A DNA stretch of 35,244 bases. It comes from a virus (lineage: Duplodnaviria > Heunggongvirae > Uroviricota > Caudoviricetes). A program made the position numbers and the translations under genes. How positions within the stretch are numbered: position 1 is the first letter of the stretch; each line of letters opens with the position of its first letter. The stretch lies in the IMG/VR virus record IMGVR_UViG_2740892431_000022; one strand, 5' to 3'. The notes under the pieces were generated by a model. That model ran no database searches and had not been told where the DNA came from. It worked only from the letters and a program-made list of their open reading frames with translations. Below, one piece after another: positions 1-30,032 of the stretch.

Positions 1-751
1 GTGCAGCACGAGACAAAAATGGAAAACCAGAGCTGGTTGAAAAAACTCGCACGCCGCCTGGGGCCTGGTCATATCGTTAATCTCTGCTTTATCGTGGTAT
101 TGCTTTTTTCCACCTTGCTCACCTGGCGTGAAGTGGTGGTGCTGGAAGATGCCTATATCTCCAGCCAGCGTAATCATCTGGAAAACGTAGCCAACGCGCT
201 CGATAAGCATTTGCAGTATAACGTCGACAAACTGATCTTTTTGCGTAATGGCATGCGCGAAGCTCTCGTGGCGCCACTGGATTTCACCTCTCTGCGTAAT
301 GCCGTAACCGAGTTCGAACAGCATCGCGACGAGCACACCTGGCAAATCGAACTCAACCGACGGCGCACCCTGCCAGTCAATGGCGTATCGGATGCATTAG
401 TCAGCGAGGGGAATCTCCTGTCTCGCGAAAATGAAAGCCTCGACAATGAAATTACCGCTGCACTGGAAGTTGGTTACTTGCTGCGACTGGCGCACAACTC
501 CTCGTCGATGGTTGAACAGGCGGTGTATGTCTCGCGTGCTGGATTTTACGTTTCGACGCTGCCGACCTTGTTTACGCGCAATGTACCAACGCGTTATTAC
601 GGCTATGTCACCCAACCCTGGTTTATCGGCCATTCACAACGAGAAAATCGTCACCGCGCGGTACGCTGGTTCACTTCGCAACCGGAACACGCCAGCAATA
701 CTGAACCGCAGGTTACCGTCAGTGTTCCGGTAGACAGTAATAACTACTGGT
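1..751 (+). pseudogene. dgcQ: 5' fragment of a diguanylate cyclase sensor gene (DgcQ/YedQ-like), interrupted by prophage insertion
   Basis: N-terminal TM helix plus periplasmic domain matching my recollection of E. coli DgcQ up to ...VPVDSNNYW; the frame then runs into 13 unrelated codons ([13 protein letters not shown]) and a stop at 790-792; no second TM or GGDEF domain. Identity is recalled, not searched. Confidence 0.6.
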
Positions 752-800
752 TGATCAGACATGAGATAAATGAAGGGGGATCCGTGAGATAAATAACGAA
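752..800. repeat. Prophage terminal region with two direct copies of TGAGATAAAT (762-771, 785-794); candidate transposase-binding sites
   Basis: Direct 10-bp repeat spaced 23 bp immediately inside the putative end; a looser third copy GATAGATAAG lies at 858-867. Confidence 0.45.
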
Positions 801-874
801 TTGGAGTGGGTTAACATGGGTTCTGGTGAACAGAACTGAAATTCTTTTCCGCTATACGATAGATAAGTCGGGCA

Positions 875-904
875 TTGAAATCATCCTTCCTGGCAACTTA
901 GAAT
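875..904 (+). promoter_or_regulatory. Putative sigma70-type promoter TTGAAA-N18-TAGAAT
   Basis: TTGAAA at 875-880 and TAGAAT at 899-904, about 45 bp upstream of a small ORF that has an AAGGA ribosome-binding site. Confidence 0.3.
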
Positions 905-947
905 CGAGTTTGCTGAAACATGACCCGTAACAAAAAGGATGATTCCA

Positions 948-1109
948 ATGACTACTCAAAACAATAAGCATGACAGCCTGGATTACTCAGAAAAGCCCAA
1001 AAGCAAGCACATTGTGACGTTCGAGCGCGATTCCGGTAGAAAAGGAGAATCGTCTTCCTCTGCCAATAAAACCACTATGCCGGCAGCTCCTGCTCCAGGG
1101 AAAAAATAA
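948..1109 (+). CDS. Small hydrophilic hypothetical protein (53 aa)
   Basis: ATG at 948 preceded by AAGGA at 8-nt spacing; hand-translated as MTTQNNKHDSLDYSEKPKSKHIVTFERDSGRKGESSSSANKTTMPAAPAPGKK; below the ORF-track size cutoff; convergent with the 1113..1746 gene. Confidence 0.3.
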   Translation: MTTQNNKHDSLDYSEKPKSKHIVTFERDSGRKGESSSSANKTTMPAAPAPGKK

Positions 1110-1112
1110 ACA

Positions 1113-1746
1113 TCATTCATCGTTCGTTGCACGAACGCGCCTGATCTCCACTCTGGCAATCTGATCTGCTGGAATATAGGTTGCCAGAGCTCCCCAGTAC
1201 TTATCAACCACGCCTTTATACTCTTCCCATTCGTTACTTCCTGAAGGGCTGCTGTGCGTGACGTAAAGAACCATATCGCCTTTATTTCCCAGGGTAAACG
1301 GACCGTTAGGCCACTCTTCAAAGTTCCCTGGCAGCCGTGACATCATACCGGAACCATCGCGAAGAATCACTCTGACCTCGGTGACGCTGAAGCCTGTTTG
1401 ATCAAACATTGCCTGCCATGCTGAGCTGGTATTGTCAGACCATGAAATATCATTATTCCACAGTAATCTGTACATCCATTTGCGACCGTACCTGCGCCAC
1501 CACGCACCGCATGTAACGGCACACAGAAGTGCTGGGGGGGTTGCCAGCCAGGCATTCAGACCTGCCCACATAACAGCCTGGTAAGCCATCATTGCTGTCA
1601 GGCCAAAAATCAGCGAAGAAAAAGTCACCTCAATGGGTTTGTGGTGATCCTTCAGCCCCACATTCGCAATAAAATACCCAATATAGCCACTGGTCAGGGT
1701 CACCAGTGTTGCCCATGGCAGATTTAATAACGAAACGTCAAACATA
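1113..1746 (-). CDS. Polytopic membrane protein (about 3 TM helices plus a roughly 110-aa C-terminal domain), cargo gene at the prophage end
   Basis: ORF 1113..1823; start assigned to the ATG at 1746 (MFDVSLL...) preceded by GGGAGA; hydrophobic helices LPWATLVTLTSGYIGYFIANVGL, VTFSSLIFGLTAMMAYQAVMWAGL and WLATPPALLCAVTCGAWW; no family recognised. Confidence 0.7.
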
Positions 1747-1780
1747 TTTTCTCCCTGCATCCTGAATATTACATAGAGAG

Positions 1781-1813
1781 CATAAAAAAAGCACGGTAAA
1801 GGGTCTACCGTGC
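1781..1813 (-). terminator. Rho-independent terminator downstream of the Mor-like gene
   Basis: On the minus-strand RNA: 8-bp stem GCACGGUA/UACCGUGC (1792-1799 with 1806-1813), 6-nt loop, then a run of 7 U (plus-strand A-run 1785-1791). Confidence 0.7.
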
Positions 1814-1859
1814 TCTTATACAATAAGGAGATTTTTGAAAGGACTTTAACAAGCAGGAA

Positions 1860-2258
1860 TTATCTGGATTTGTTAACGTCTTTCGTCTCCTCTGGCAGAT
1901 CTTCATCAAACAACCTGCCCTGCATCCGATCCAGTTCTTCTTTTCTGACCCGCTTAACCACGCTGTAGACCCACTGAAGCGAAACACCAAAATTGCGGGC
2001 CAGTTCGTGGTGGTTGCGTCCGTTAAACTCCCTGAAGATTTCCCGGTCGCGCTGACTGACCTTCCATACCATGCCCATCGGGAAATAAACGTTTTGCCCG
2101 CCCCAGACCTGCATCATTCGGTTCGCGACGGCCTGACCAATCTGGTCGGCAATTGCGGGCTCAATATCAATAATCTCGCGAACGGTCTCAGAGGTATGCT
2201 GTGCCAGTTCCACCAGGAGTTCCGGCCCTTTACTTCGAAACTGATTCAGGTCGCTCAT
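1860..2258 (-). CDS. mor: Mor/C-family transcriptional activator (middle operon regulator-like)
   Basis: Family signature ...GGQNVYFPMG...RDREIFREFNGRNHHELARNFGVSLQWVYSVVKRVR; GGGAG ribosome-binding site upstream; last gene of the early operon. Confidence 0.88.
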   Translation of the reverse strand: MSDLNQFRSKGPELLVELAQHTSETVREIIDIEPAIADQIGQAVANRMMQVWGGQNVYFPMGMVWKVSQRDREIFREFNGRNHHELARNFGVSLQWVYSVVKRVRKEELDRMQGRLFDEDLPEETKDVNKSR

Positions 2259-3107: not shown

Positions 3108-3787
3108 CTGGCCTCCAGTTTCTGTTGTTCCTGCCCACTGACCGGGCGGTGCAGTCTGACGTTCTGCCCTTCACGAAACCCCGCATAGCGCGAGGCGTCG
3201 CCATTGCGGCTTCTTCCCGGTTTACGCGCCCTGGTGGTTTGCGTCTGCGGGTATTTATGTTCCAGCCACTGCTGCATCAGTTCACGCTCATCATCGGTCA
3301 GGGCAAAGGACTGTATTTCACTGATAACGGCCAGCACCCAGCCTTCGGCAAACTGGTCTCCACGGCTGGTGCGGGTGGCGGTTTTTATTCTTTTGTTCTG
3401 TGCACTGATATACTGCTGACGCGCCTTTTTCAGCTGACGGGCCAGCACTTCCCAGGTGTATGCAGCCAGTGCCGCACGTTCCCGGTTGCCGTAGAACCCC
3501 ACAGACGGGTGCGTGCCGGGGTGAATGATGGAGTTAACACCAAATACCTCGCGGATGATGTTCATCAGGCCCAGCATGTAGCGCGGTGGACGGAGACTGC
3601 CTGTCGGCCAGTAGTGACTGATGGTTTCATCAATATCACTCATAGCAATGTCGGAATGTGTGATGCCGTGAACATCCATCAGTTTACGGGCTCGGCGCAG
3701 TGCCAGAGCGGCCTCGTGCGGGTTGCCGGATGCGGCCAGCGCCAGCAACTTTTTCAGTTTCTCAATGTGTTTATTCTGGTCTGTCAT
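3104..3787 (-). CDS. Early protein with a DUF2786-like N-terminal motif
   Basis: KLKKLLALAASGNPHEAALALRRARKLM motif; start placed at the ATG at 3787 (MTDQNK...), which overlaps the stop of the 3784..3999 gene as ATGA; alternative start at 3823. Confidence 0.65.
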   Translation of the reverse strand: MTDQNKHIEKLKKLLALAASGNPHEAALALRRARKLMDVHGITHSDIAMSDIDETISHYWPTGSLRPPRYMLGLMNIIREVFGVNSIIHPGTHPSVGFYGNRERAALAAYTWEVLARQLKKARQQYISAQNKRIKTATRTSRGDQFAEGWVLAVISEIQSFALTDDERELMQQWLEHKYPQTQTTRARKPGRSRNGDASRYAGFREGQNVRLHRPVSGQEQQKLEAR

Positions 3788-3999
3788 TGTTCTGTATCTC
3801 CGGTATTTTTCTGCCGTTTCCATGCCCGGACAGCGTCGGACAGCTCTTTCAGGCTGTATGCTGCTTTAAGCTTTTCCCATAACCACTGTGTTGTTATGTG
3901 CATCAGCAGGGCAGCCAGGGCTGCCCCCGCACTGAGGCATGTCGCCAGGCCAGTAAGAATCAGTGTCCATGCGGTGATTTCCCTGAGTATGTCAGCCAT
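3784..3999 (-). CDS. Small membrane protein (71 aa)
   Basis: GGGAGG ribosome-binding site 5 nt before the ATG at 3999; one predicted TM helix (WTLILTGLATCLSAGAALAALLM). Confidence 0.55.
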   Translation of the reverse strand: MADILREITAWTLILTGLATCLSAGAALAALLMHITTQWLWEKLKAAYSLKELSDAVRAWKRQKNTGDTEQ

Positions 4000-5710: not shown

Positions 5711-6877
5711 TTAAACCCCTTTGACAACGTCAGCGTTGACCTGTGGAACCCCGATTTCAGCGGCCAGATTCATGGCGGCTATCACCAGGTTACTGACGGC
5801 CAGCGGATACAGCAGGCTGACCATATTTTTACGATGACTTCCCGGATTGCTCAGGCGGGCACGTATGGCATCCACTGCGCTGGCGTCCATAATGTCCGTC
5901 AGTTGTTTACCGGCCCGTTGCAGTTTGAACGTCAGAAATTCTTCAAGGTTATTGTCCAGAGGCAGAAGTTCGACCACCTCACAACGCTGAACGACTTCAC
6001 GGACTTCCATATTGCGTTCAGACAGTTTTGTCGCCAGTTCCGGCTGGCCAATCAGCACGATGGACAGCAGTTTTTTGAAACCGGACTCCAGCTCAAAAAA
6101 GCGTTTGAGGTGTTTCAGTGTCGGAATGGGCAGACTGTGGGCCTCCTCAATCACCAAAACGTGGCTGAACCCCGCCTGGCTGCTGTCTTTCAGGACGCGA
6201 TGCAACTGGCGAAAGCGGGCGTCCTGACTGCGTCTGATGCTTTCCAGTGGTGCGATGGTACTGATAATGGCTTCGGCAATCGCTGCTGCCTTCAGGGTTT
6301 TCCCTTTCACATCGTTGTCTTCCATAGCGATGATGTATGGCTCGATAACAATTACCGGCGCATTCTCGCGGTTGATACGTTCAGTCAGGTCGCGGCGCAG
6401 CGTGGATTTACCCGCACCGGACTCACCGATGACGGCCATAAACCCACCATGACGGGCTGTCTGGTACAACGCCTCACGCACGTAGCGAATGTCCGGGGTG
6501 GTGAACACATCATCAGAACCCTGCATGGCTTCATCGGCGAACGGGTCACGGAAAAGACCAAACGCTTTTTTGGTTGCTGGAAATAACACCTGTTTTTTGA
6601 GTAACATATTCTCTTCCTCACTGAGGCTCGTTTTATCTGTGGTACCCGCTGTACGGGGCGTGGCTGCGCCCTGTACAGCATCAAAACTCTTCGTTGTATC
6701 AATCCCCTGACTTTCCAGCCAGGACGCAAGACGCCGGCGCACTTCTCCGGGGCTGGTGCGGGGCCACGCGTTATGATTCACAATCTGGGCCAGCGTGGCC
6801 TCAGAAACATCGACAGCTCTCGCCACCACCGCCTGTGGGATACGGGCCTCTTTCAGTTGCTGCTTCAGTACCAGCAT
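5711..6877 (-). CDS. Transposition ATPase B (MuB-like AAA+ protein)
   Basis: N-terminal HTH-like segment, Walker A GESGAGKST, Walker B-like VLVIEEAH; start placed at the ATG at 6877 with a strong GAGGAGGAA ribosome-binding site (ORF extends to 6916). Confidence 0.88.
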   Translation of the reverse strand: MLVLKQQLKEARIPQAVVARAVDVSEATLAQIVNHNAWPRTSPGEVRRRLASWLESQGIDTTKSFDAVQGAATPRTAGTTDKTSLSEEENMLLKKQVLFPATKKAFGLFRDPFADEAMQGSDDVFTTPDIRYVREALYQTARHGGFMAVIGESGAGKSTLRRDLTERINRENAPVIVIEPYIIAMEDNDVKGKTLKAAAIAEAIISTIAPLESIRRSQDARFRQLHRVLKDSSQAGFSHVLVIEEAHSLPIPTLKHLKRFFELESGFKKLLSIVLIGQPELATKLSERNMEVREVVQRCEVVELLPLDNNLEEFLTFKLQRAGKQLTDIMDASAVDAIRARLSNPGSHRKNMVSLLYPLAVSNLVIAAMNLAAEIGVPQVNADVVKGV

Positions 6878-6887
6878 GTTTTCCTCC

Positions 6888-8657
6888 TCAGTTGCCGTTA
6901 ACAATGCTGATAACACTGCTGCGTGCCGGCGTGGTCAGCGTGGCCATGACTTCATCCAGTGCAGCTTCCGGTACGCCGTCCGGGTACTGTGCCGTTAACT
7001 GGCGGTAATGTTCCGGCGTCCAGGTAAGGCCGTCGGCGCTGAACTTATCGCGCAGGGCTTTCGCGGCCTCCACATGAGTCATGGGACGTTGTTCAGTGCG
7101 CGGCCCGCGTACGTCAGAGGCCTGACCACGCTTCGGCATATAGGCCGGAAGTGTGGTGTCGTCGATATGTTTATACGGGTCAAGCCGCCCGCCGAACGGC
7201 AGCGCCTTCGCCTTGCGTGCGGCGGCTGCATCTGCGGCGTTGTCTGTACCGGTAACCAGCGCTTCAGTTTCTTTTGCCGCCATCTGTGCCGAGGTTTCCG
7301 GCAGGGCTTTGTAACTTTCGCCAAATACCGCCGCGCCTTCAGCAAAGCCAAACTCGTTCTTTCTGACCTCTTCGACCAGGAAGAACGTCTCGTGGCCGTC
7401 CTCACCGGTCAGAACCACCTGTGCCACATCGCTGCGCCATGGGTTACGGGTAATCATCAGTTTTTCACCAACCAGTACGCCCGGTACCGTTGATACGTCA
7501 AATTCAGTGCCCCGGAACGAGACACGAAGTTTTGGCGTGACTTTGCGGAGTTCTGGTGCCGCCACAGCCAGTTCACGACATACCTCAACGGAAGGCGCTT
7601 TTTTCAGCTGCTCAGCAGTAATCTTCAGCCAGATATCCGTGCGGGTTTTACCGTGGCGGCTGTGAACAGCCGTGGCGTTAAAGTGGCTGCGCCATTTCGC
7701 GGCCAGCGCGTTGAGTTCTTCCAGACTGTGAACCGGCCGGAACTTCAGCCCCGGCTCCAGCTTGCGTTCGATAATGTCACGCGCCTTTTCCACCTGTCCG
7801 GTGGCGCGGGCGTTATGCGGCTTGTGCGCTATCAGGTCGATGCCCAGTGAGCGGCACATGTTTTTCGTCATACCCGCGGTGTTTGCCGAGCCGGGGTCGA
7901 GATAGAGTATTTTCGGCACGCCGTGCAGCACGTCTGCGCCGCCACGCTCCTGCATGGCGTTGATAAGCACAGAACACAGGTTCTCACCTGATTCCGCGCC
8001 CGTCACATACTCAACGTAAATCCAGCCGCTGGCATGGTCGGTAATCTCGTAACTCCACACGCGGTCACTGGCGATACGGGCAAGGTTAGCGGGCTTGTTC
8101 TTGTAGAACTTCGCGCTGTCCATCACCTGCAGCCCTTTATGTCCATTGCTCAGGTAGTAAAGCGTGCAGAGTGAGGCGTCAATCTGCCAGACATGATTGG
8201 GATGCAGACTGGCCACTTCGGTATGTGGTGCAGGGGCATCCAGTTGTTCCGGGTGCAGGCCATAGTTACGCAGAGCACGGCTGATGGCATCTTCAGACAA
8301 CGGGAAAAACTCACTGGTGGTTTCATCTGTTCTGCCTGCGGTGATAAAGCCGTTAGCCCGCAGGGTTTCCACTGCATCTGCGATGGAATAGAGACGCTTA
8401 CCGTTCTTGCGGGTGGCCTCACGCAGTGTGGCAGATATCAGCGCGGCTTCGTCGCGGGTCAGGGCGCTGCGCCCGGCATCGGCGCGTTTTTTGCGTTTAT
8501 CAGTCACAGAGACCTCCTTCAGCCTGCGCAGCAGAGTGGCGCGGGACATGCCAAGTTCAGCACAGGCAGCGTCGTATATTGCACCGCGTTTACCATGCCC
8601 CGCGTCACGTGCCGCGCGGGCGACATAAACCAGTCGTTCAGTCAGGGCAGCATTCAT
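6888..8657 (-). CDS. Mu-type DDE transposase A
   Basis: 589 aa; N-terminal DNA-binding region, central rve-like core (...HVWQIDAS..., ...LYLDPGSANTAG...) and C-terminal region; GGAGG ribosome-binding site; immediately upstream of B. Confidence 0.92.
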   Translation of the reverse strand: MNAALTERLVYVARAARDAGHGKRGAIYDAACAELGMSRATLLRRLKEVSVTDKRKKRADAGRSALTRDEAALISATLREATRKNGKRLYSIADAVETLRANGFITAGRTDETTSEFFPLSEDAISRALRNYGLHPEQLDAPAPHTEVASLHPNHVWQIDASLCTLYYLSNGHKGLQVMDSAKFYKNKPANLARIASDRVWSYEITDHASGWIYVEYVTGAESGENLCSVLINAMQERGGADVLHGVPKILYLDPGSANTAGMTKNMCRSLGIDLIAHKPHNARATGQVEKARDIIERKLEPGLKFRPVHSLEELNALAAKWRSHFNATAVHSRHGKTRTDIWLKITAEQLKKAPSVEVCRELAVAAPELRKVTPKLRVSFRGTEFDVSTVPGVLVGEKLMITRNPWRSDVAQVVLTGEDGHETFFLVEEVRKNEFGFAEGAAVFGESYKALPETSAQMAAKETEALVTGTDNAADAAAARKAKALPFGGRLDPYKHIDDTTLPAYMPKRGQASDVRGPRTEQRPMTHVEAAKALRDKFSADGLTWTPEHYRQLTAQYPDGVPEAALDEVMATLTTPARSSVISIVNGN

Positions 8658-9585: not shown

Positions 9586-9894
9586 TTACAAACGACTACC
9601 TGAAATAACTCGTTGGTTGATTTCGTTAATACGATCCTGTGCACGCGCCATCTCGTGACTGTGAGCCATGGCGATCTGTAGTAACTGGATTCCCGGTGCG
9701 AAACGTCCGTTCTCTAATTTCATGGCCAGTCCCTCTTCAATAAGGGTATTAAGTGCTCGATTGATATTCGCCGGGGACTCCCCCAGGGCTGATGCCAGTT
9801 CACCGTTAGAAACACCGTTCAGAGCATGACCGCGTAGAGCTTTGAGTACACGTAGGATGCGGGTCCCAGAACTGGAAATATTTACTTTACTCAT
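9586..9894 (-). CDS. Winged-helix (IclR/MarR-like) DNA-binding protein
   Basis: ...SGTRILRVLKALRGHALNGVSNGELASALGESPANINRALNTLIEEGL... resembles a wHTH; start at 9894 (MSKVN...) preferred over 9957; neither start has a strong ribosome-binding site. Confidence 0.55.
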   Translation of the reverse strand: MSKVNISSSGTRILRVLKALRGHALNGVSNGELASALGESPANINRALNTLIEEGLAMKLENGRFAPGIQLLQIAMAHSHEMARAQDRINEINQRVISGSRL

Positions 9895-9910
9895 GTCACA
9901 TTTCCATTTT

Positions 9911-9941
9911 TGCAATATGTGATAACCTGTTGCATATGTGG
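9911..9941. promoter_or_regulatory. Direct repeats TGCAATATGTG (9911-9921) and TGCATATGTGG (9931-9941), spaced 20 bp
   Basis: Related copies at 10154-10163 (TGCAATGATG) and 10172-10181 (ATATGTGATA) in the divergent promoter region. Confidence 0.35.
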
Positions 9942-9946
9942 AAAAT

Positions 9947-10135
9947 TTATGCCGCATTTGACGTGGGTTTTAATCCCAGTTTTACGGCAATTTCATGGGC
10001 TTTGCCGTAACGAGCTTTGGTCTGTCCATTGAGAACACGATAGACCTCATTGCGGCTGTAGCCGTGTTCTTCGGCCCAGCGGGTAAACGTGATACCACGC
10101 TGACGGAAGAGATTTTTAACTTGTTCGGAAGTCAT
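9947..10135 (-). CDS. ner: Ner-like DNA-binding protein (Ner/Nlp family)
   Basis: 62 aa; ...FTRWAEEHGYSRNEVYRVL...GKAHEIAVKLGLKP parallels the Mu Ner HTH and C-terminal segment; AAAGGAGA ribosome-binding site; first gene of the leftward operon. Confidence 0.75.
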   Translation of the reverse strand: MTSEQVKNLFRQRGITFTRWAEEHGYSRNEVYRVLNGQTKARYGKAHEIAVKLGLKPTSNAA

Positions 10136-10182
10136 TGTTGTCTCCTTTGTTGATGCAATGATGTTTGTTTTATATGTGATAG

Positions 10183-10211
10183 ATTATGAGAACTATTGTT
10201 CTCATTGTCAA
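10183..10211 (-). promoter_or_regulatory. Early promoter Pe (minus strand): -35 TTGACA, 17-bp spacer, -10 CATAAT
   Basis: Reverse complement of 10206-10211 is TTGACA and of 10183-10188 is CATAAT; about 45 nt upstream of the ner-like ATG. Confidence 0.6.
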
Positions 10212-10214
10212 TGA
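10186..10214. promoter_or_regulatory. Operator-like palindromes overlapping Pe
   Basis: ATGAGAAC-tatt-GTTCTCAT (10186-10205, 8-bp arms) fills the Pe spacer; TCATTG-t-CAATGA (10202-10214) overlaps the -35. Confidence 0.55.
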
Positions 10215-10221
10215 GGTTTGT

Positions 10222-10647
10222 GTGAATTTTGATTCTCTTTGCGCGTCGCGGTTCAAAGCTGAGCGTTCGCGGTTATCACTCAAGCAGGCTGAAGTAGCAG
10301 CCCTTTGTGGCGTTTCAAGAGAAATGTGGGGGAAATATGAACGAGGGGTTGCTGTTCCCGGAGGTGAGTTACTTGCAGCCTTTGCAAGAATTGGGGCCAA
10401 TGTACAGTTCATTCTTACCGGGGAGTCATCAGGTATAACTTTATCACGTGATGAAATGGAGTTACTGCAGCACTACCGGCAGGCACCATTACAGGTCAAA
10501 GGTTCAGTTTTGTCGGCCTTGACTACTGGCTCCTCCAGAGAACGGGCGGAACAGGTTATTCATGGAGATGTTCTGGGGAATGTTATCAAAGGTAACGTAA
10601 CCATAGGAACAGGTGGAATAATGAACAAAAATACCAAGAGAAGATGA
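10222..10647 (+). CDS. XRE-family HTH repressor-like protein
   Basis: HTH ...LSLKQAEVAALCGVSREMWGKYERG...; divergent from the ner-A-B operon; GTG at 10222 has GAGG 5 nt upstream; the ORF-track ATG at 10186 lies inside the operator palindrome (a leaderless start there is not excluded). Confidence 0.7.
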   Translation: MNFDSLCASRFKAERSRLSLKQAEVAALCGVSREMWGKYERGVAVPGGELLAAFARIGANVQFILTGESSGITLSRDEMELLQHYRQAPLQVKGSVLSALTTGSSRERAEQVIHGDVLGNVIKGNVTIGTGGIMNKNTKRR

Positions 10648-26750: not shown

Positions 26751-29700
26751 ATGTCGGGACAGTTTTCAGTCGGCGTTGTTATCGGCGGGATGATTGGCAG
26801 CACATTCCGTTCTGCAATGAGCGGTACCCGCCGTGCGCTTGATTCCCTGAGCGATACCTCACGCCGCCTGCAGGAACGTCAGAACGCTTTAACCCGTGCA
26901 ACAGAACGTTATGGTCAACTGGGTTCTTCCCGGATGCAGCATCTCAACAGCGAGCTGCTGCGGGTAAGCCGCACCATGGAGCAAATTGAGCGCCAGCAGC
27001 GCCGTCTGTCAGCGGCATCCGCTACCAGTGATGCGCTGAAAGCTAACCGCATGGCGCTGTATGGTCAGGGGATTGAAGCGTATGGCATGGCACAGACTGT
27101 TTATCATACGGTTTCCCCTGCCGTTCAGCAGTCCATGTCTTTTCAGGACAAAATGATTGATATGTCGATCACCGCAAAATATGACAATAAAACGCGGGAT
27201 GCACTTGCCGGACAGATAAAAGGCTGGGCGCTTAAATACAATCAGTATCAGGATGAGCTGCAGGAGGCGGTGGGTTCACTCATCAGCGACAATATTGATA
27301 ATGTGTCAGATATCGGTTTTCTGATGCCGGATATTGCCCGCGCGGCAACGGCAACACGCACGTCTGCTCAGGACTGGGCAAAAGTGGCCGCAGTCTGGCA
27401 AAACTCCCTGAAAGGTGCGGCCAGAGATTTTGGTGCCGTTCAGAATATTATGGCTTATGCCGGTGACCAGGGGTCATTTGAAATCCCGGATCAGGTCAAG
27501 TGGATGCAGTCCCTGGCCCCAATGATGGCGGGTATTGCCAGTGGAAAAGAGGCTGTTGCTGAAATCGGGGCCAGTCTCCAGATAGCAAAAATCGGTGCAG
27601 GTTCCACCGACGAAGCAGCTAATAATTTTAAAAACTTTCTTACCAAAATTTTTGCCCGCGATACTCAGAAACAGTTTGCTGATCTGGGTATTGATTTGCA
27701 GGGATCTATTGCGAGTTATAAAGCTGCGGGGATCTCTCCGATTGAAGGGATGTTGAGTGTTATAGAACGTTACCTCAATGCCAAAAGCCCCGAAGCGCTG
27801 GCCGGCTTCAAATCAGCCATGAAAATAAAGAATGATACGGCAAGAGATGAGGCACTTCAGGCTCTGGCGAAAAACTTTGGTCTGGGCGATATGTTCGCGG
27901 ATATGCAGGTCATGGCATTTATCCGCCCGATGCTGGCCAACATGGACAGATATCGAGAGATCCGTGCCGGTGCTCTCAGGGCTGCGGATAACGATTTGCT
28001 TGCCAGTGCTTATGATCAGCGGCTGAAATCTCCCCTTGAAGCCACTAAAACACTTATGGTCAGCAGTCGCGATCTGGCAATTACGCTGGGCGATCAATTA
28101 GCTCCATCTTTTATTTCTTTGACTCAGGAACTGCTTCCACTCATTCAGGGGGCAAAACACTGGGTAGCGACTCACCCGCAATTTGTCAGTGGGGCTTTTA
28201 AGCTCATCAGTGCGCTCCTTGCGATTAAGATAGCGACTGTTGGTCTCAAACTGGGGCTGAATCTCCTTATTTCCCCCTTTGTAAGTGTCTGGAAAAATGC
28301 TGTTTTACTTCGGGCCAACTGGCTTCGTCTGTCGCTCGCACTGGGGCAAGGCGGTAAGCTCCGCTGGCTGGTGACCGGATTTAGCGCCGTCGCCAGAGGA
28401 GCCAGAACACTGAGTGGCGTGCTCTCCGGGGGGCTGGTTCGCGGAATTATGCTCGCCGGACGTGCTGTTCTCTGGATTGGACGTGCGCTGATGATGAATC
28501 CCATCGGTCTCGTTATCACCGCTGTCGCGGCAGCAGCTTACCTTATCTACCGCAACTGGGGGGCAGTCAGTGGCTGGTTTAAACAGCGCTGGGCAGACAT
28601 TCAGGAAGCCTTTAACGGCGGCATTGTGGGAATTGGTAAGTTACTGATTAACTGGTCGCCGGCAGGCCTGCTCTATAAAGCCTTTGCGGCTGCGCTGAAA
28701 TATTTCGGCGTTGCTCTGCCGGCAAAGTTCACCGACTTCGGTGGCCATCTTATCGACGGTCTGATTAACGGTATCAAAAACAAATGGGGGTCGCTCAAAT
28801 CCAGTGTAACCGGAATGGGTGACAGCATCAGTAGCTGGTTTAAACAGTGCTGGGCTGACATTCAGGAAGCCTTTAACGGCGGTATCGCGGGAACTGGTAA
28901 GCTGCTGATTAACTGGTCGCCGGCAGGTCTGCTCTATAAAGCCTTTGCAGCTGCGCTGAAATATCTTGGTGTTGATCTGCCGGCAAAGTTCACCGACTTC
29001 GGTGGCCATCTTGTCGACGGTCTGATTAACGGTATCAAAAACAAATGGGAGTCGCTCAAATCCAGTGTAACCGGAATGGGTGACAGCATCAGTGGCTGGT
29101 TCAGCGAAAAGCTGGGCATTCATTCGCCGAGCCGCGTGTTTATGGGCTTTGGTGACAATATAAGCTGGTTTAAACAGTGCTGGGCTGACATTCAGGAAGC
29201 CTTTAACGGCGGTATCGCGGGAACTGGTAAGCTGCTGATTAACTGGTCGCCGGCAGGTCTGCTCTATAAAGCCTTTGCAGCTGCGCTGAAATATCTTGGT
29301 GTTGATCTGCCGGCAAAGTTCACCGACTTCGGTGGCCATCTTGTCGACGGTCTGATTAACGGTATCAAAAACAAATGGGAGTCGCTCAAATCCAGTGTAA
29401 CCGGAATGGGTGACAGCATCAGTGGCTGGTTCAGCGAAAAGCTGGGCATTCATTCGCCGAGCCGCGTGTTTATGGGCTTTGGTGACAATATCGCGCAGGG
29501 GGCCGCCATTGGCCTGCAGCGGACCACTCCGCTTGCAGCTCTGGCCGGGCAGCGAATGGCCAGTGAACTGCTCCCCAAAATGCCCGTGAGCATTCAGGGG
29601 CCAGAAATACGGGATAACACTTCAGGTGTTCGCTTCAGTATGCCGTTGCCCGATATCAATGGGTTTATGTCGTCTGCTAAAAATGCGATCGGAGCCGTAA

Positions 29701-30032
29701 TCAATAGTTTGTCTTCCATGCCCGCTATCCCGCTCTCCACCCGGGCATCGATTTTACCAGGGCAACGTCTGGCAAATGAGATGACACCGGATGTTCCCCG
29801 TATCCCCTCGCCTGAAATCATGGCTGCCGGATATTCAGGCCGTGGTGCAGCTGCAACCGGCGGTGGAACGTCTGGTGGTATCCAGGTCAGCTTTAATCCT
29901 CAGTTTTTCCTCAATGGCAGGGAAACCACAGCGCCTGCAGGACTGACTGGTGCCCTGAATATGAGTCTGCATGAGCTGGAAAAAATGCTGGAGCGTCTGC
30001 TGGCTCAGAAACAACGTAAGGAGTACCGCTGA
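26751..30032 (+). CDS. Tail tape measure protein
   Basis: 1093 aa, alpha-helical/hydrophobic character, follows the chaperone pair; contains an internal tandem repeat array. Confidence 0.9.
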   Translation: MSGQFSVGVVIGGMIGSTFRSAMSGTRRALDSLSDTSRRLQERQNALTRATERYGQLGSSRMQHLNSELLRVSRTMEQIERQQRRLSAASATSDALKANRMALYGQGIEAYGMAQTVYHTVSPAVQQSMSFQDKMIDMSITAKYDNKTRDALAGQIKGWALKYNQYQDELQEAVGSLISDNIDNVSDIGFLMPDIARAATATRTSAQDWAKVAAVWQNSLKGAARDFGAVQNIMAYAGDQGSFEIPDQVKWMQSLAPMMAGIASGKEAVAEIGASLQIAKIGAGSTDEAANNFKNFLTKIFARDTQKQFADLGIDLQGSIASYKAAGISPIEGMLSVIERYLNAKSPEALAGFKSAMKIKNDTARDEALQALAKNFGLGDMFADMQVMAFIRPMLANMDRYREIRAGALRAADNDLLASAYDQRLKSPLEATKTLMVSSRDLAITLGDQLAPSFISLTQELLPLIQGAKHWVATHPQFVSGAFKLISALLAIKIATVGLKLGLNLLISPFVSVWKNAVLLRANWLRLSLALGQGGKLRWLVTGFSAVARGARTLSGVLSGGLVRGIMLAGRAVLWIGRALMMNPIGLVITAVAAAAYLIYRNWGAVSGWFKQRWADIQEAFNGGIVGIGKLLINWSPAGLLYKAFAAALKYFGVALPAKFTDFGGHLIDGLINGIKNKWGSLKSSVTGMGDSISSWFKQCWADIQEAFNGGIAGTGKLLINWSPAGLLYKAFAAALKYLGVDLPAKFTDFGGHLVDGLINGIKNKWESLKSSVTGMGDSISGWFSEKLGIHSPSRVFMGFGDNISWFKQCWADIQEAFNGGIAGTGKLLINWSPAGLLYKAFAAALKYLGVDLPAKFTDFGGHLVDGLINGIKNKWESLKSSVTGMGDSISGWFSEKLGIHSPSRVFMGFGDNIAQGAAIGLQRTTPLAALAGQRMASELLPKMPVSIQGPEIRDNTSGVRFSMPLPDINGFMSSAKNAIGAVINSLSSMPAIPLSTRASILPGQRLANEMTPDVPRIPSPEIMAAGYSGRGAAATGGGTSGGIQVSFNPQFFLNGRETTAPAGLTGALNMSLHELEKMLERLLAQKQRKEYR
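28572..29492 (+). repeat. In-frame tandem repeat array inside the tape measure gene
   Basis: Two 330-bp units (28833..29162 and 29163..29492) identical except the last base, preceded by a diverged 261-bp copy (28572..28832); each full unit encodes 110 aa. Confidence 0.85.

Follow-up and report, generated by a model that had tools for sequence, protein, structure and literature searches.

TG...CA termini are characteristic of BcepMu-related prophages that carry an rve transposase of the Tn552 lineage, as described in the KS10 paper (PMC2628397). In E. coli, 'Prophage 4' of strain ABU 83972 lies in rstB and resembles prophages found in IAI39 and S. Typhi (Zdziarski et al. 2010, PMC2928814), and a paper on an avian strain describes a BcepMu-like prophage of 40.8 kb in which a 2.6-kb segment is invertible (PMC11610265). 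The phenotypes of dgcQ (yedQ) deletions are strain-dependent: in CFT073, removal of yedQ leads to less biofilm on glycerol, a defect complemented by WspR, and in K-12 it increases motility and alters early biofilm (PMC3484386). In S. flexneri 2457T, dgcQ has a stop at codon 56, and c-di-GMP is still made from Met59 when the gene is over-expressed (PMC11327459). Here we analyze a dgcQ allele joined to the end of a prophage in a 35,244-nucleotide viral sequence (Caudoviricetes; IMG/VR record IMGVR_UViG_2740892431_000022), the whole of which is referred to as the window. We are highly confident that a BcepMu-type phage inserted into codon 251 of dgcQ with a 6-bp ACTGGT duplication and split the gene, loss of activity being the most likely net effect. 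A literature search found no paper describing this insertion allele.

The left junction and the truncated DgcQ product

The first-pass annotation of the window, made from the letters alone, had named DgcQ/YedQ as the host reading frame, and had placed its divergence into a phage end starting with TG at nucleotides 751/752. When window nt 1-1500 were queried by megablast against 5426 complete E. coli genomes, 5364 genomes produced matches. In nearly all of them (>5000) only nt 1-751 align, with identities of up to 99.9-100%, and the alignments stop at 751 within a gene annotated as 'cellulose biosynthesis regulator diguanylate cyclase DgcQ'. The full 1500 nt are matched in five genomes. Some other genomes match only from approximately nt 748-751 onward, beside unrelated genes such as gudD, and the sequence from 752 is the same element as that found within gudD, yqhA, ybaP and rstB. 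The identity of the host gene is thus settled by 99.9-100% identity over nt 1-751 and by synteny, the gene order yedI-yodC-dgcQ-yedP being identical in strain SCU-172, which carries the insertion, and in a genome with an intact allele. RefSeq places the dgcQ start at the GTG at window position 1. Across the site, the intact allele reads ...AATAACTACTGGTATGGCGTG (longer stretch: ...GTAATAACTACTGGTATGGCGTGCTGG), and the window reads ...AATAACTACTGGT followed directly by TGATCAGACATGAG (longer stretch: ...GTAATAACTACTGGT, then TGATCAGACATGAGATAAATG). Comparison of the two therefore sets the breakpoint exactly at 751/752, with foreign DNA that begins TG, precisely where the annotation had drawn it.

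The 5' part of dgcQ (1-751, plus strand; codons 1-250 plus one nucleotide) encodes the cytoplasmic N-terminus, the first transmembrane segment (TM1) and the CHASE7 part of the periplasmic sensor domain. It continues into a chimeric, truncated ORF of 263 aa (1-792, plus strand), in which DgcQ residues 1-250, ending in ...SNNYW, are followed by 13 phage-coded residues and a TAA stop codon at 790-792. This ORF is an interrupted gene and not one that ends at a natural stop of its own. Intact DgcQ is 564 aa long, and Pfam locates CHASE7 at residues 41-227 and GGDEF at residues 398-557. Hydropathy peaks mark TM1 at approximately residues 20-47 and TM2 at approximately 355-380 in both the intact allele and the gene reconstituted below, such that the architecture TM1 - periplasmic CHASE7 - TM2 - GGDEF is present in each. 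From the positions of TM1 and TM2, the break at residue 250 falls inside the periplasmic domain, and both TM2 and GGDEF lie past it. The window ORF keeps only TM1 and CHASE7 (41-227), and a Pfam scan of its 263 residues returned CHASE7 alone, with GGDEF absent. Translation, Pfam and hydropathy therefore agree on the product that had been predicted, which retains TM1 and part of the periplasmic domain, gains 13 phage-derived residues and is devoid of GGDEF. In SCU-172, RefSeq annotates the 5' part of dgcQ as a pseudogene without its C-terminus and flags both halves of the gene as partial pseudogenes.

The right junction and the 6-bp target duplication

The right end of the prophage was looked for in the window and is absent from it. 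The window stops inside a tail-fibre gene, and the right end was therefore sought in the five genomes that share the left junction (SCU-172, MSB1_4I, AF3, AF10 and AF14), all of which are closed and 99.9-100% identical to the window at the junction. SCU-172 differs from the window at only six positions up to the start of an extra 330-bp repeat in the latter, and its prophage spans positions 2087 to 39577 of the SCU-172 locus sequence (L001), a length of 37,491 bp. It ends with ...TTTATCGCGCGGCGCATCA and is followed by ACTGGTATGGCGTGCTGG, the continuation of dgcQ; the right junctions of MSB1_4I, AF3, AF10 and AF14 are identical. All five read ...GCGCATCA followed by ACTGGTATGG, that is, ACTGGT and then the remaining dgcQ sequence (also written as ...GCGCATCA followed by ACTGGTATGGCGTG). 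The 3' remainder of dgcQ, which had been expected beyond the right end, is hence present in five genomes, with a direct repeat of the target in front of it. When the prophage is taken out together with one ACTGGT, a 1695-nt ORF of 564 aa is regained, and this differs from an intact allele by 5 nt and 2 aa. ACTGGT is single in the intact allele; in the insertion allele its left copy occupies 746-751, and its right copy lies outside the window, directly past the right end of the prophage.

The duplication had been predicted as the 5-bp sequence CTGGT (747-751), and a direct repeat that contains this sequence does flank the prophage. From dgcQ alone, a length of 5 bp (CTGGT) could not be told from one of 6 bp (ACTGGT), as both ...CAA and ...CA were possible ends of the phage. 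For this reason, the two junctions were also compared in eight more independent insertions, located in gudD, yqhA, ybaP, rstB, an amino-acid permease gene, mdfA and two other sites. The first 25 and the last 25 phage bases are identical across the insertions compared, and each of the eight is flanked by a perfect 6-bp direct repeat (ACATGG, ACAAAT, ACACCT, ACAAAT, CATTCC, GCAAAT, GCATAC and GCTAAT), so that nine of nine independent insertions combine a 6-bp duplication of unrelated sequence with TG...CA ends. In four of these, the terminal CA is not followed by A, and yet all six bases are duplicated, from which it follows that the element ends in CA and that the duplication is 6 bp. The predicted repeat thus stands, but its length does not: it is ACTGGT (746-751) rather than CTGGT. 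Together with the TG...CA ends and the many unrelated sites occupied, the duplication identifies the transposition-type insertion that had been proposed. The duplicated sequences look non-random, with C at position 2 in eight of the nine and [A/G]CAAAT occurring three times (yqhA, rstB and mdfA), which hints at a target-site preference of the BcepMu-type E. coli transposase.

Prophage 4 of ABU 83972 is among the nine insertions compared and belongs to the same family. Its first and last 25 bases are identical to those of the dgcQ prophage, it matches our left-end query (the first 359 bp) at 98.6% and our right-end query (the last 375 bp before the right terminus) at 100%, its duplication is the 6-bp ACAAAT, and it too splits a gene for a membrane sensor. 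It differs in its target, which is rstB and not dgcQ, and represents an independent transposition event.

Two other origins for the dgcQ junction were weighed against transposition. A recombinase could have integrated the element site-specifically at an att site inside dgcQ, as a serine recombinase gene sits at the right end and the five genomes share an identical site. This we regard as extremely improbable, and reject it, on account of the many unrelated sites occupied: the element is found at no fewer than nine of them, the flanks have no sequence in common, and 597 of the 5426 complete E. coli genomes (~11%) contain the 375 bp that precede the right terminus, adjoined by many different host genes. 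The recombinase itself is a 190-aa protein of the resolvase/invertase type located beside oppositely oriented tail-fibre and tail-fibre-assembly genes, and an invertible region of 2.6 kb has been published for a similar E. coli prophage (PMC11610265). The shared site also has another explanation in the history of the carriers. The five were isolated in the USA, Australia and the UK, two of them from human rectal swabs (USA and Australia) and three from blood cultures (UK). In both of the carriers that were checked, SCU-172 and MSB1_4I, a copy of IS1A abuts a 90-nt fliR stub that is followed by yedK; this site spans 43169-43967 in the SCU-172 locus (L001) and 3160-3958 in the MSB1_4I locus (L024), approximately 3 kb past dgcQ and outside the window. 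Relative to the K-12 gene order, this arrangement implies that the genes from fliE to fliR and from yedL to intG are deleted in these two strains. With the IS1-associated fliR deletion in both, the dgcQ insertion is most simply explained as one ancestral event in one lineage, which suggests that the five carriers share the site by common descent rather than through site preference.

The alternative that a chimeric contig joined dgcQ to a prophage from elsewhere draws on a perfect 330-bp duplication in the tape-measure gene of the window, which none of the best 12 matches listed aligns in one piece and which indicates that the assembly may have flaws. We give this explanation next to no credence and reject it because the junctions recur: both are reproduced in five closed genomes from three countries, the 6-bp duplication matches on the two sides, and the gene is reconstituted exactly. 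Transposition accordingly remains our reading of the locus.

A prophage of the BcepMu type

The left terminus of the prophage (752-794, plus strand) starts with 5'-TG (TGATCAG...) and carries two direct repeats, TGAGATAAAT, at 762-771 and 785-794 with a 23-bp spacing. The right end mirrors it, with GCGATAAATG present twice at the same offsets, and we presume that these terminal direct repeats are transposase-binding sites. As in BcepMu, the GAGATAAAT/GCGATAAAT repeats form inverted pairs at equal offsets from both termini. The E. coli element begins TGATCAGACATGAGATAAATG... at its left end and, read as the reverse complement, TGATGCGCCGCGCGATAAATG... at its right end, and the termini of BcepMu read TGAAGAGAGGTGAGATATTTC... 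and TGAAGCGCGGCGCGATATTTC...; in every one of these termini a second copy of the motif occurs 23 bp further in. The two elements thus share TGA... termini with GNGATAWWT repeats at positions 12-20 and 35-43 of both ends.

The gene layout was derived from Pfam and PHROG scans and from the RefSeq annotation of the identical locus, which marks none of the phage genes as a pseudogene. In the window the prophage runs from its left end into the tail-fibre gene (752-35244, plus strand) and is colinear with BcepMu (NC_005882). Transcribed on the minus strand, toward the left end, are two small DNA-binding genes, a gene for a DUF3102 protein, the transposase, an AAA+ protein, Gam, several small ORFs, GemA and Mor. 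The DDE (rve) transposase (6888-8657) is a 589-aa protein of the BcepMu / Tn552-IS1604 type, identified by Pfam rve and by phrog_310 (transposase, E=3e-147), and is paired with an ExeA-like AAA+ transposition ATPase (5711-6877), a functional counterpart of MuB that matches Pfam AAA_22 and phrog_296 ('DNA transposition protein', E=2e-93). GemA/gp16 (2230-2679, Pfam GemA E=7.7e-41) and the Mor-family middle/late transcription activator (1860-2258, Pfam Mor E=3.6e-43) close this operon. In the divergent regulatory region (9586-10647), two small HTH/DNA-binding genes on the minus strand (9586-9894 and 9947-10135) face a repressor-like HTH gene on the plus strand (10186-10647), with matches to phrog_8 and to a CII-like regulator. 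The late region (12947-35244, plus strand; RefSeq) encodes the holin, the SLT endolysin, spanin-region genes, terminase, portal and head proteins, a P2-like sheath, tube, tape measure and baseplate, and the first part of the tail-fibre gene, and is colinear with BcepMu gp21-gp52. The ~3.3 kb beyond the window, known from SCU-172, contain the rest of the tail-fibre gene, an invertible tail-fibre segment with oppositely oriented tail-fibre and tail-fibre-assembly genes, the Gin-like recombinase and the right end.

Two accessory genes lie between the left terminus and mor (948-1745): a 53-aa ORF on the plus strand (948-1109, phrog_15726) and a 210-aa ORF on the minus strand (1113-1745, phrog_12870), both hypothetical proteins in RefSeq. 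Their position at the phage end is like that of moron, or lysogenic-conversion, genes. A further observation concerns the tape-measure ORF (26751-30032), in which a perfect tandem duplication of a 330-bp unit (2.0 copies, 100% identity) occupies 28833-29491. It is in frame, giving a tape-measure protein of 1093 aa compared to 983 aa in SCU-172, and the best 12 E. coli matches listed all align over it in at least two pieces. The duplication may be a genuine expansion, in which case a longer tail would be predicted, or it may be an artefact of the assembly.

Transposase comparisons by tblastn give the same placement as the gene order. Among the matches listed, identity is 99% to PhiKM, 68-69% to the Burkholderia phages BcepMu and phiE255, and 56% to Pseudomonas phage B3; the BcepMu homologue, gp09, is 68.2% identical over 98% of its length. 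The BcepMu-type organization is present nearly gene for gene, with a leftward early operon that ends in GemA-Mor at the left end, a divergent repressor, and rightward lysis, head and P2-like tail genes. Like BcepMu (Bcepmuvirus), which has enterobacterial prophage relatives such as the S. Typhi prophage named with IAI39 in PMC2928814, the element pairs an rve transposase with an ExeA-like AAA+ protein, has Mor and GemA on the minus strand at the left end, follows the same module order and arranges its divergent regulators as gp16/gp17. It is unlike BcepMu in three respects: nucleotide similarity is too low for any megablast match; the two accessory genes are extra, as in BcepMu no gene is annotated in the matching interval and the first annotated gene, mor, starts at nt 365; and the right end carries a Gin-like invertase with an invertible tail-fibre module, whereas an acyltransferase takes this place in BcepMu. 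Transposase homology, colinearity with BcepMu and the shared layout of the termini lead us to classify the element as a BcepMu-type transposable myovirus and not as Mu proper.

In phage Mu, the target duplication is 5 bp. Insertion of a classical Mu (Muvirus) with duplication of CTGGT would account for the TG...CA ends, for the Mor, GemA and Gam homologues, for the Gin-like invertase by the tail-fibre genes and for the presence of CTGGT on both sides of the prophage. The element indeed resembles Mu in these genes and ends, in a presumed replicative-transposition lifestyle with near-random mutagenic insertion, and in a Gin-type switch for tail-fibre inversion. However, its duplication is 6 bp in all nine insertions, four of which have a base other than A past the terminal CA, and this junction comparison refutes the 5-bp duplication. 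Its transposase is of a lineage different from the MuA type: the closest relatives are BcepMu-type, no Mu or D108 record appears among 40 of the 69 tblastn matches, listed so as to span the whole ranking, and Pfam returns rve alone. Finally, its early genes lie on the strand opposite to the late genes, an arrangement shared with BcepMu and B3, whereas Mu transcribes both in one direction, with the early operon read from the c end. A classical Mu insertion is thus a most implausible source of the dgcQ junctions, and the BcepMu-type assignment is retained. A full-text literature search for the duplication length of BcepMu itself returned nothing useful.

The closest deposited phage genomes among the matches listed are Escherichia phage PhiKM (PQ738613), Phi06_2974 B and Klebsiella phage KP12, which differ from the dgcQ element in being phage genome entries and not prophages in place. 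PhiKM is 95.5% identical in nucleotide sequence over 71% of the early region and has no match to the ~1.1 kb at the far left of the prophage (window 752-1899); a literature search found no description of this phage. The left end is also the more variable part across E. coli. In contrast to the 597 genomes that contain the right end, 118 of the 5426 genomes match the 359-bp left-end sequence with at least 80% coverage, and 140 records match this sequence at only 80-90% identity; the tail region is matched by megablast in 656 genomes. The disparity between the two ends describes a family with a conserved right end and tail module and divergent left ends. Nucleotides 10-154 of the left end (window 761-905) are 89.7% identical to a sequence in 67 conjugative plasmids, 63 from E. 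coli and 4 from Klebsiella. In the one plasmid examined, the IncF ColV plasmid pAPEC-O2-211A-ColV, the match (2501-2644) is unannotated and lies between a LysR-family gene and IS1, where it resembles a solitary remnant of the end of a related phage.

Consequences for DgcQ activity and for the lineage

In our reading, a BcepMu-type temperate phage entered codon 251 of dgcQ by DDE-transposase strand transfer and duplicated the 6-bp target ACTGGT; the two junctions, the repeat, the family of the phage and the domains of each gene fragment are demonstrated by the comparisons above. The promoter-proximal fragment would then be expected to yield a 263-aa membrane-anchored CHASE7 stub without the catalytic domain, and the second fragment, the 3' part with TM2 and GGDEF, would be left promoter-less 37.5 kb downstream. 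We infer that loss of DgcQ diguanylate cyclase activity is the most likely net effect, and any phenotype of the insertion is likewise deduced. YedQ is reportedly needed for CsgD-independent cellulose production in strain 1094, a result ascribed to Da Re and Ghigo in 2006. With regard to motility, the fliE-fliR deletion means that the lineage with the dgcQ prophage is probably non-flagellate, which would make any effect of DgcQ on motility moot there.

The 3' fragment keeps an intact GGDEF domain, and such a remnant is not automatically inert, since the internal start in S. flexneri is active. The allele of S. flexneri 2457T is similarly a natural one broken upstream of an intact GGDEF (PMC11327459), but there residue 56 is a nonsense codon and translation re-initiates at Met59 of that same mRNA, whereas here a 37.5-kb prophage separates the dgcQ promoter from the GGDEF part. 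The remnant could conceivably be transcribed from the right end of the phage, by read-through from the recombinase gene or from an outward promoter, and translated from GTG253 or ATG256 into a protein that still makes c-di-GMP without the N-terminal sensor. Consistent with this, the recombinase gene is oriented toward the remnant, with its end ~80 nt short of the junction, and internally initiated DgcQ is active in S. flexneri. We nevertheless consider an active remnant very unlikely. The fragment is cut off from the dgcQ promoter, and a scan of positions 38800-39800 of the SCU-172 locus (L001), between the recombinase region and the remnant, found no sigma-70-like promoter. An in-frame stop 10 codons upstream of the junction means that no fusion with a phage ORF is possible, and this candidate was excluded. 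By eye, no Shine-Dalgarno-like sequence is seen at the usual spacing before ATG256, and none is obvious for GTG253. Finally, ~100 N-terminal residues would have to translocate without TM1 for the native topology to form. Slightly less likely still is the fuller scenario in which phage read-through expresses a DgcQ fragment of residues ~256-564 without the N-terminal sensor, the CHASE7 stub is made separately, and c-di-GMP synthesis becomes deregulated or phage-controlled. If true, this would amount to lysogenic conversion by gene-fragment capture, and the co-occurring IS1-associated loss of fliE-fliR would suggest selection on the motility/sessility network in a lineage with human gut and bloodstream isolates.

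With loss of activity as the preferred outcome, the dgcQ insertion is a clean insertional knockout of an ordinary kind, caused by a phage family that is common and has been described before. It matters little past strain-level annotation and adds one natural dgcQ-disrupted lineage, represented by five closed genomes, that could be used as a natural mutant in work on biofilm and cellulose phenotypes that depend on DgcQ. More useful are two by-products of the analysis, namely that this phage family makes 6-bp and not 5-bp target duplications and that its ends are now precisely defined. Because ~11% of complete E. coli genomes contain its right end, at many different sites, the family is a frequent natural insertional mutagen, the insertions of which annotation pipelines record only as unexplained partial pseudogenes.
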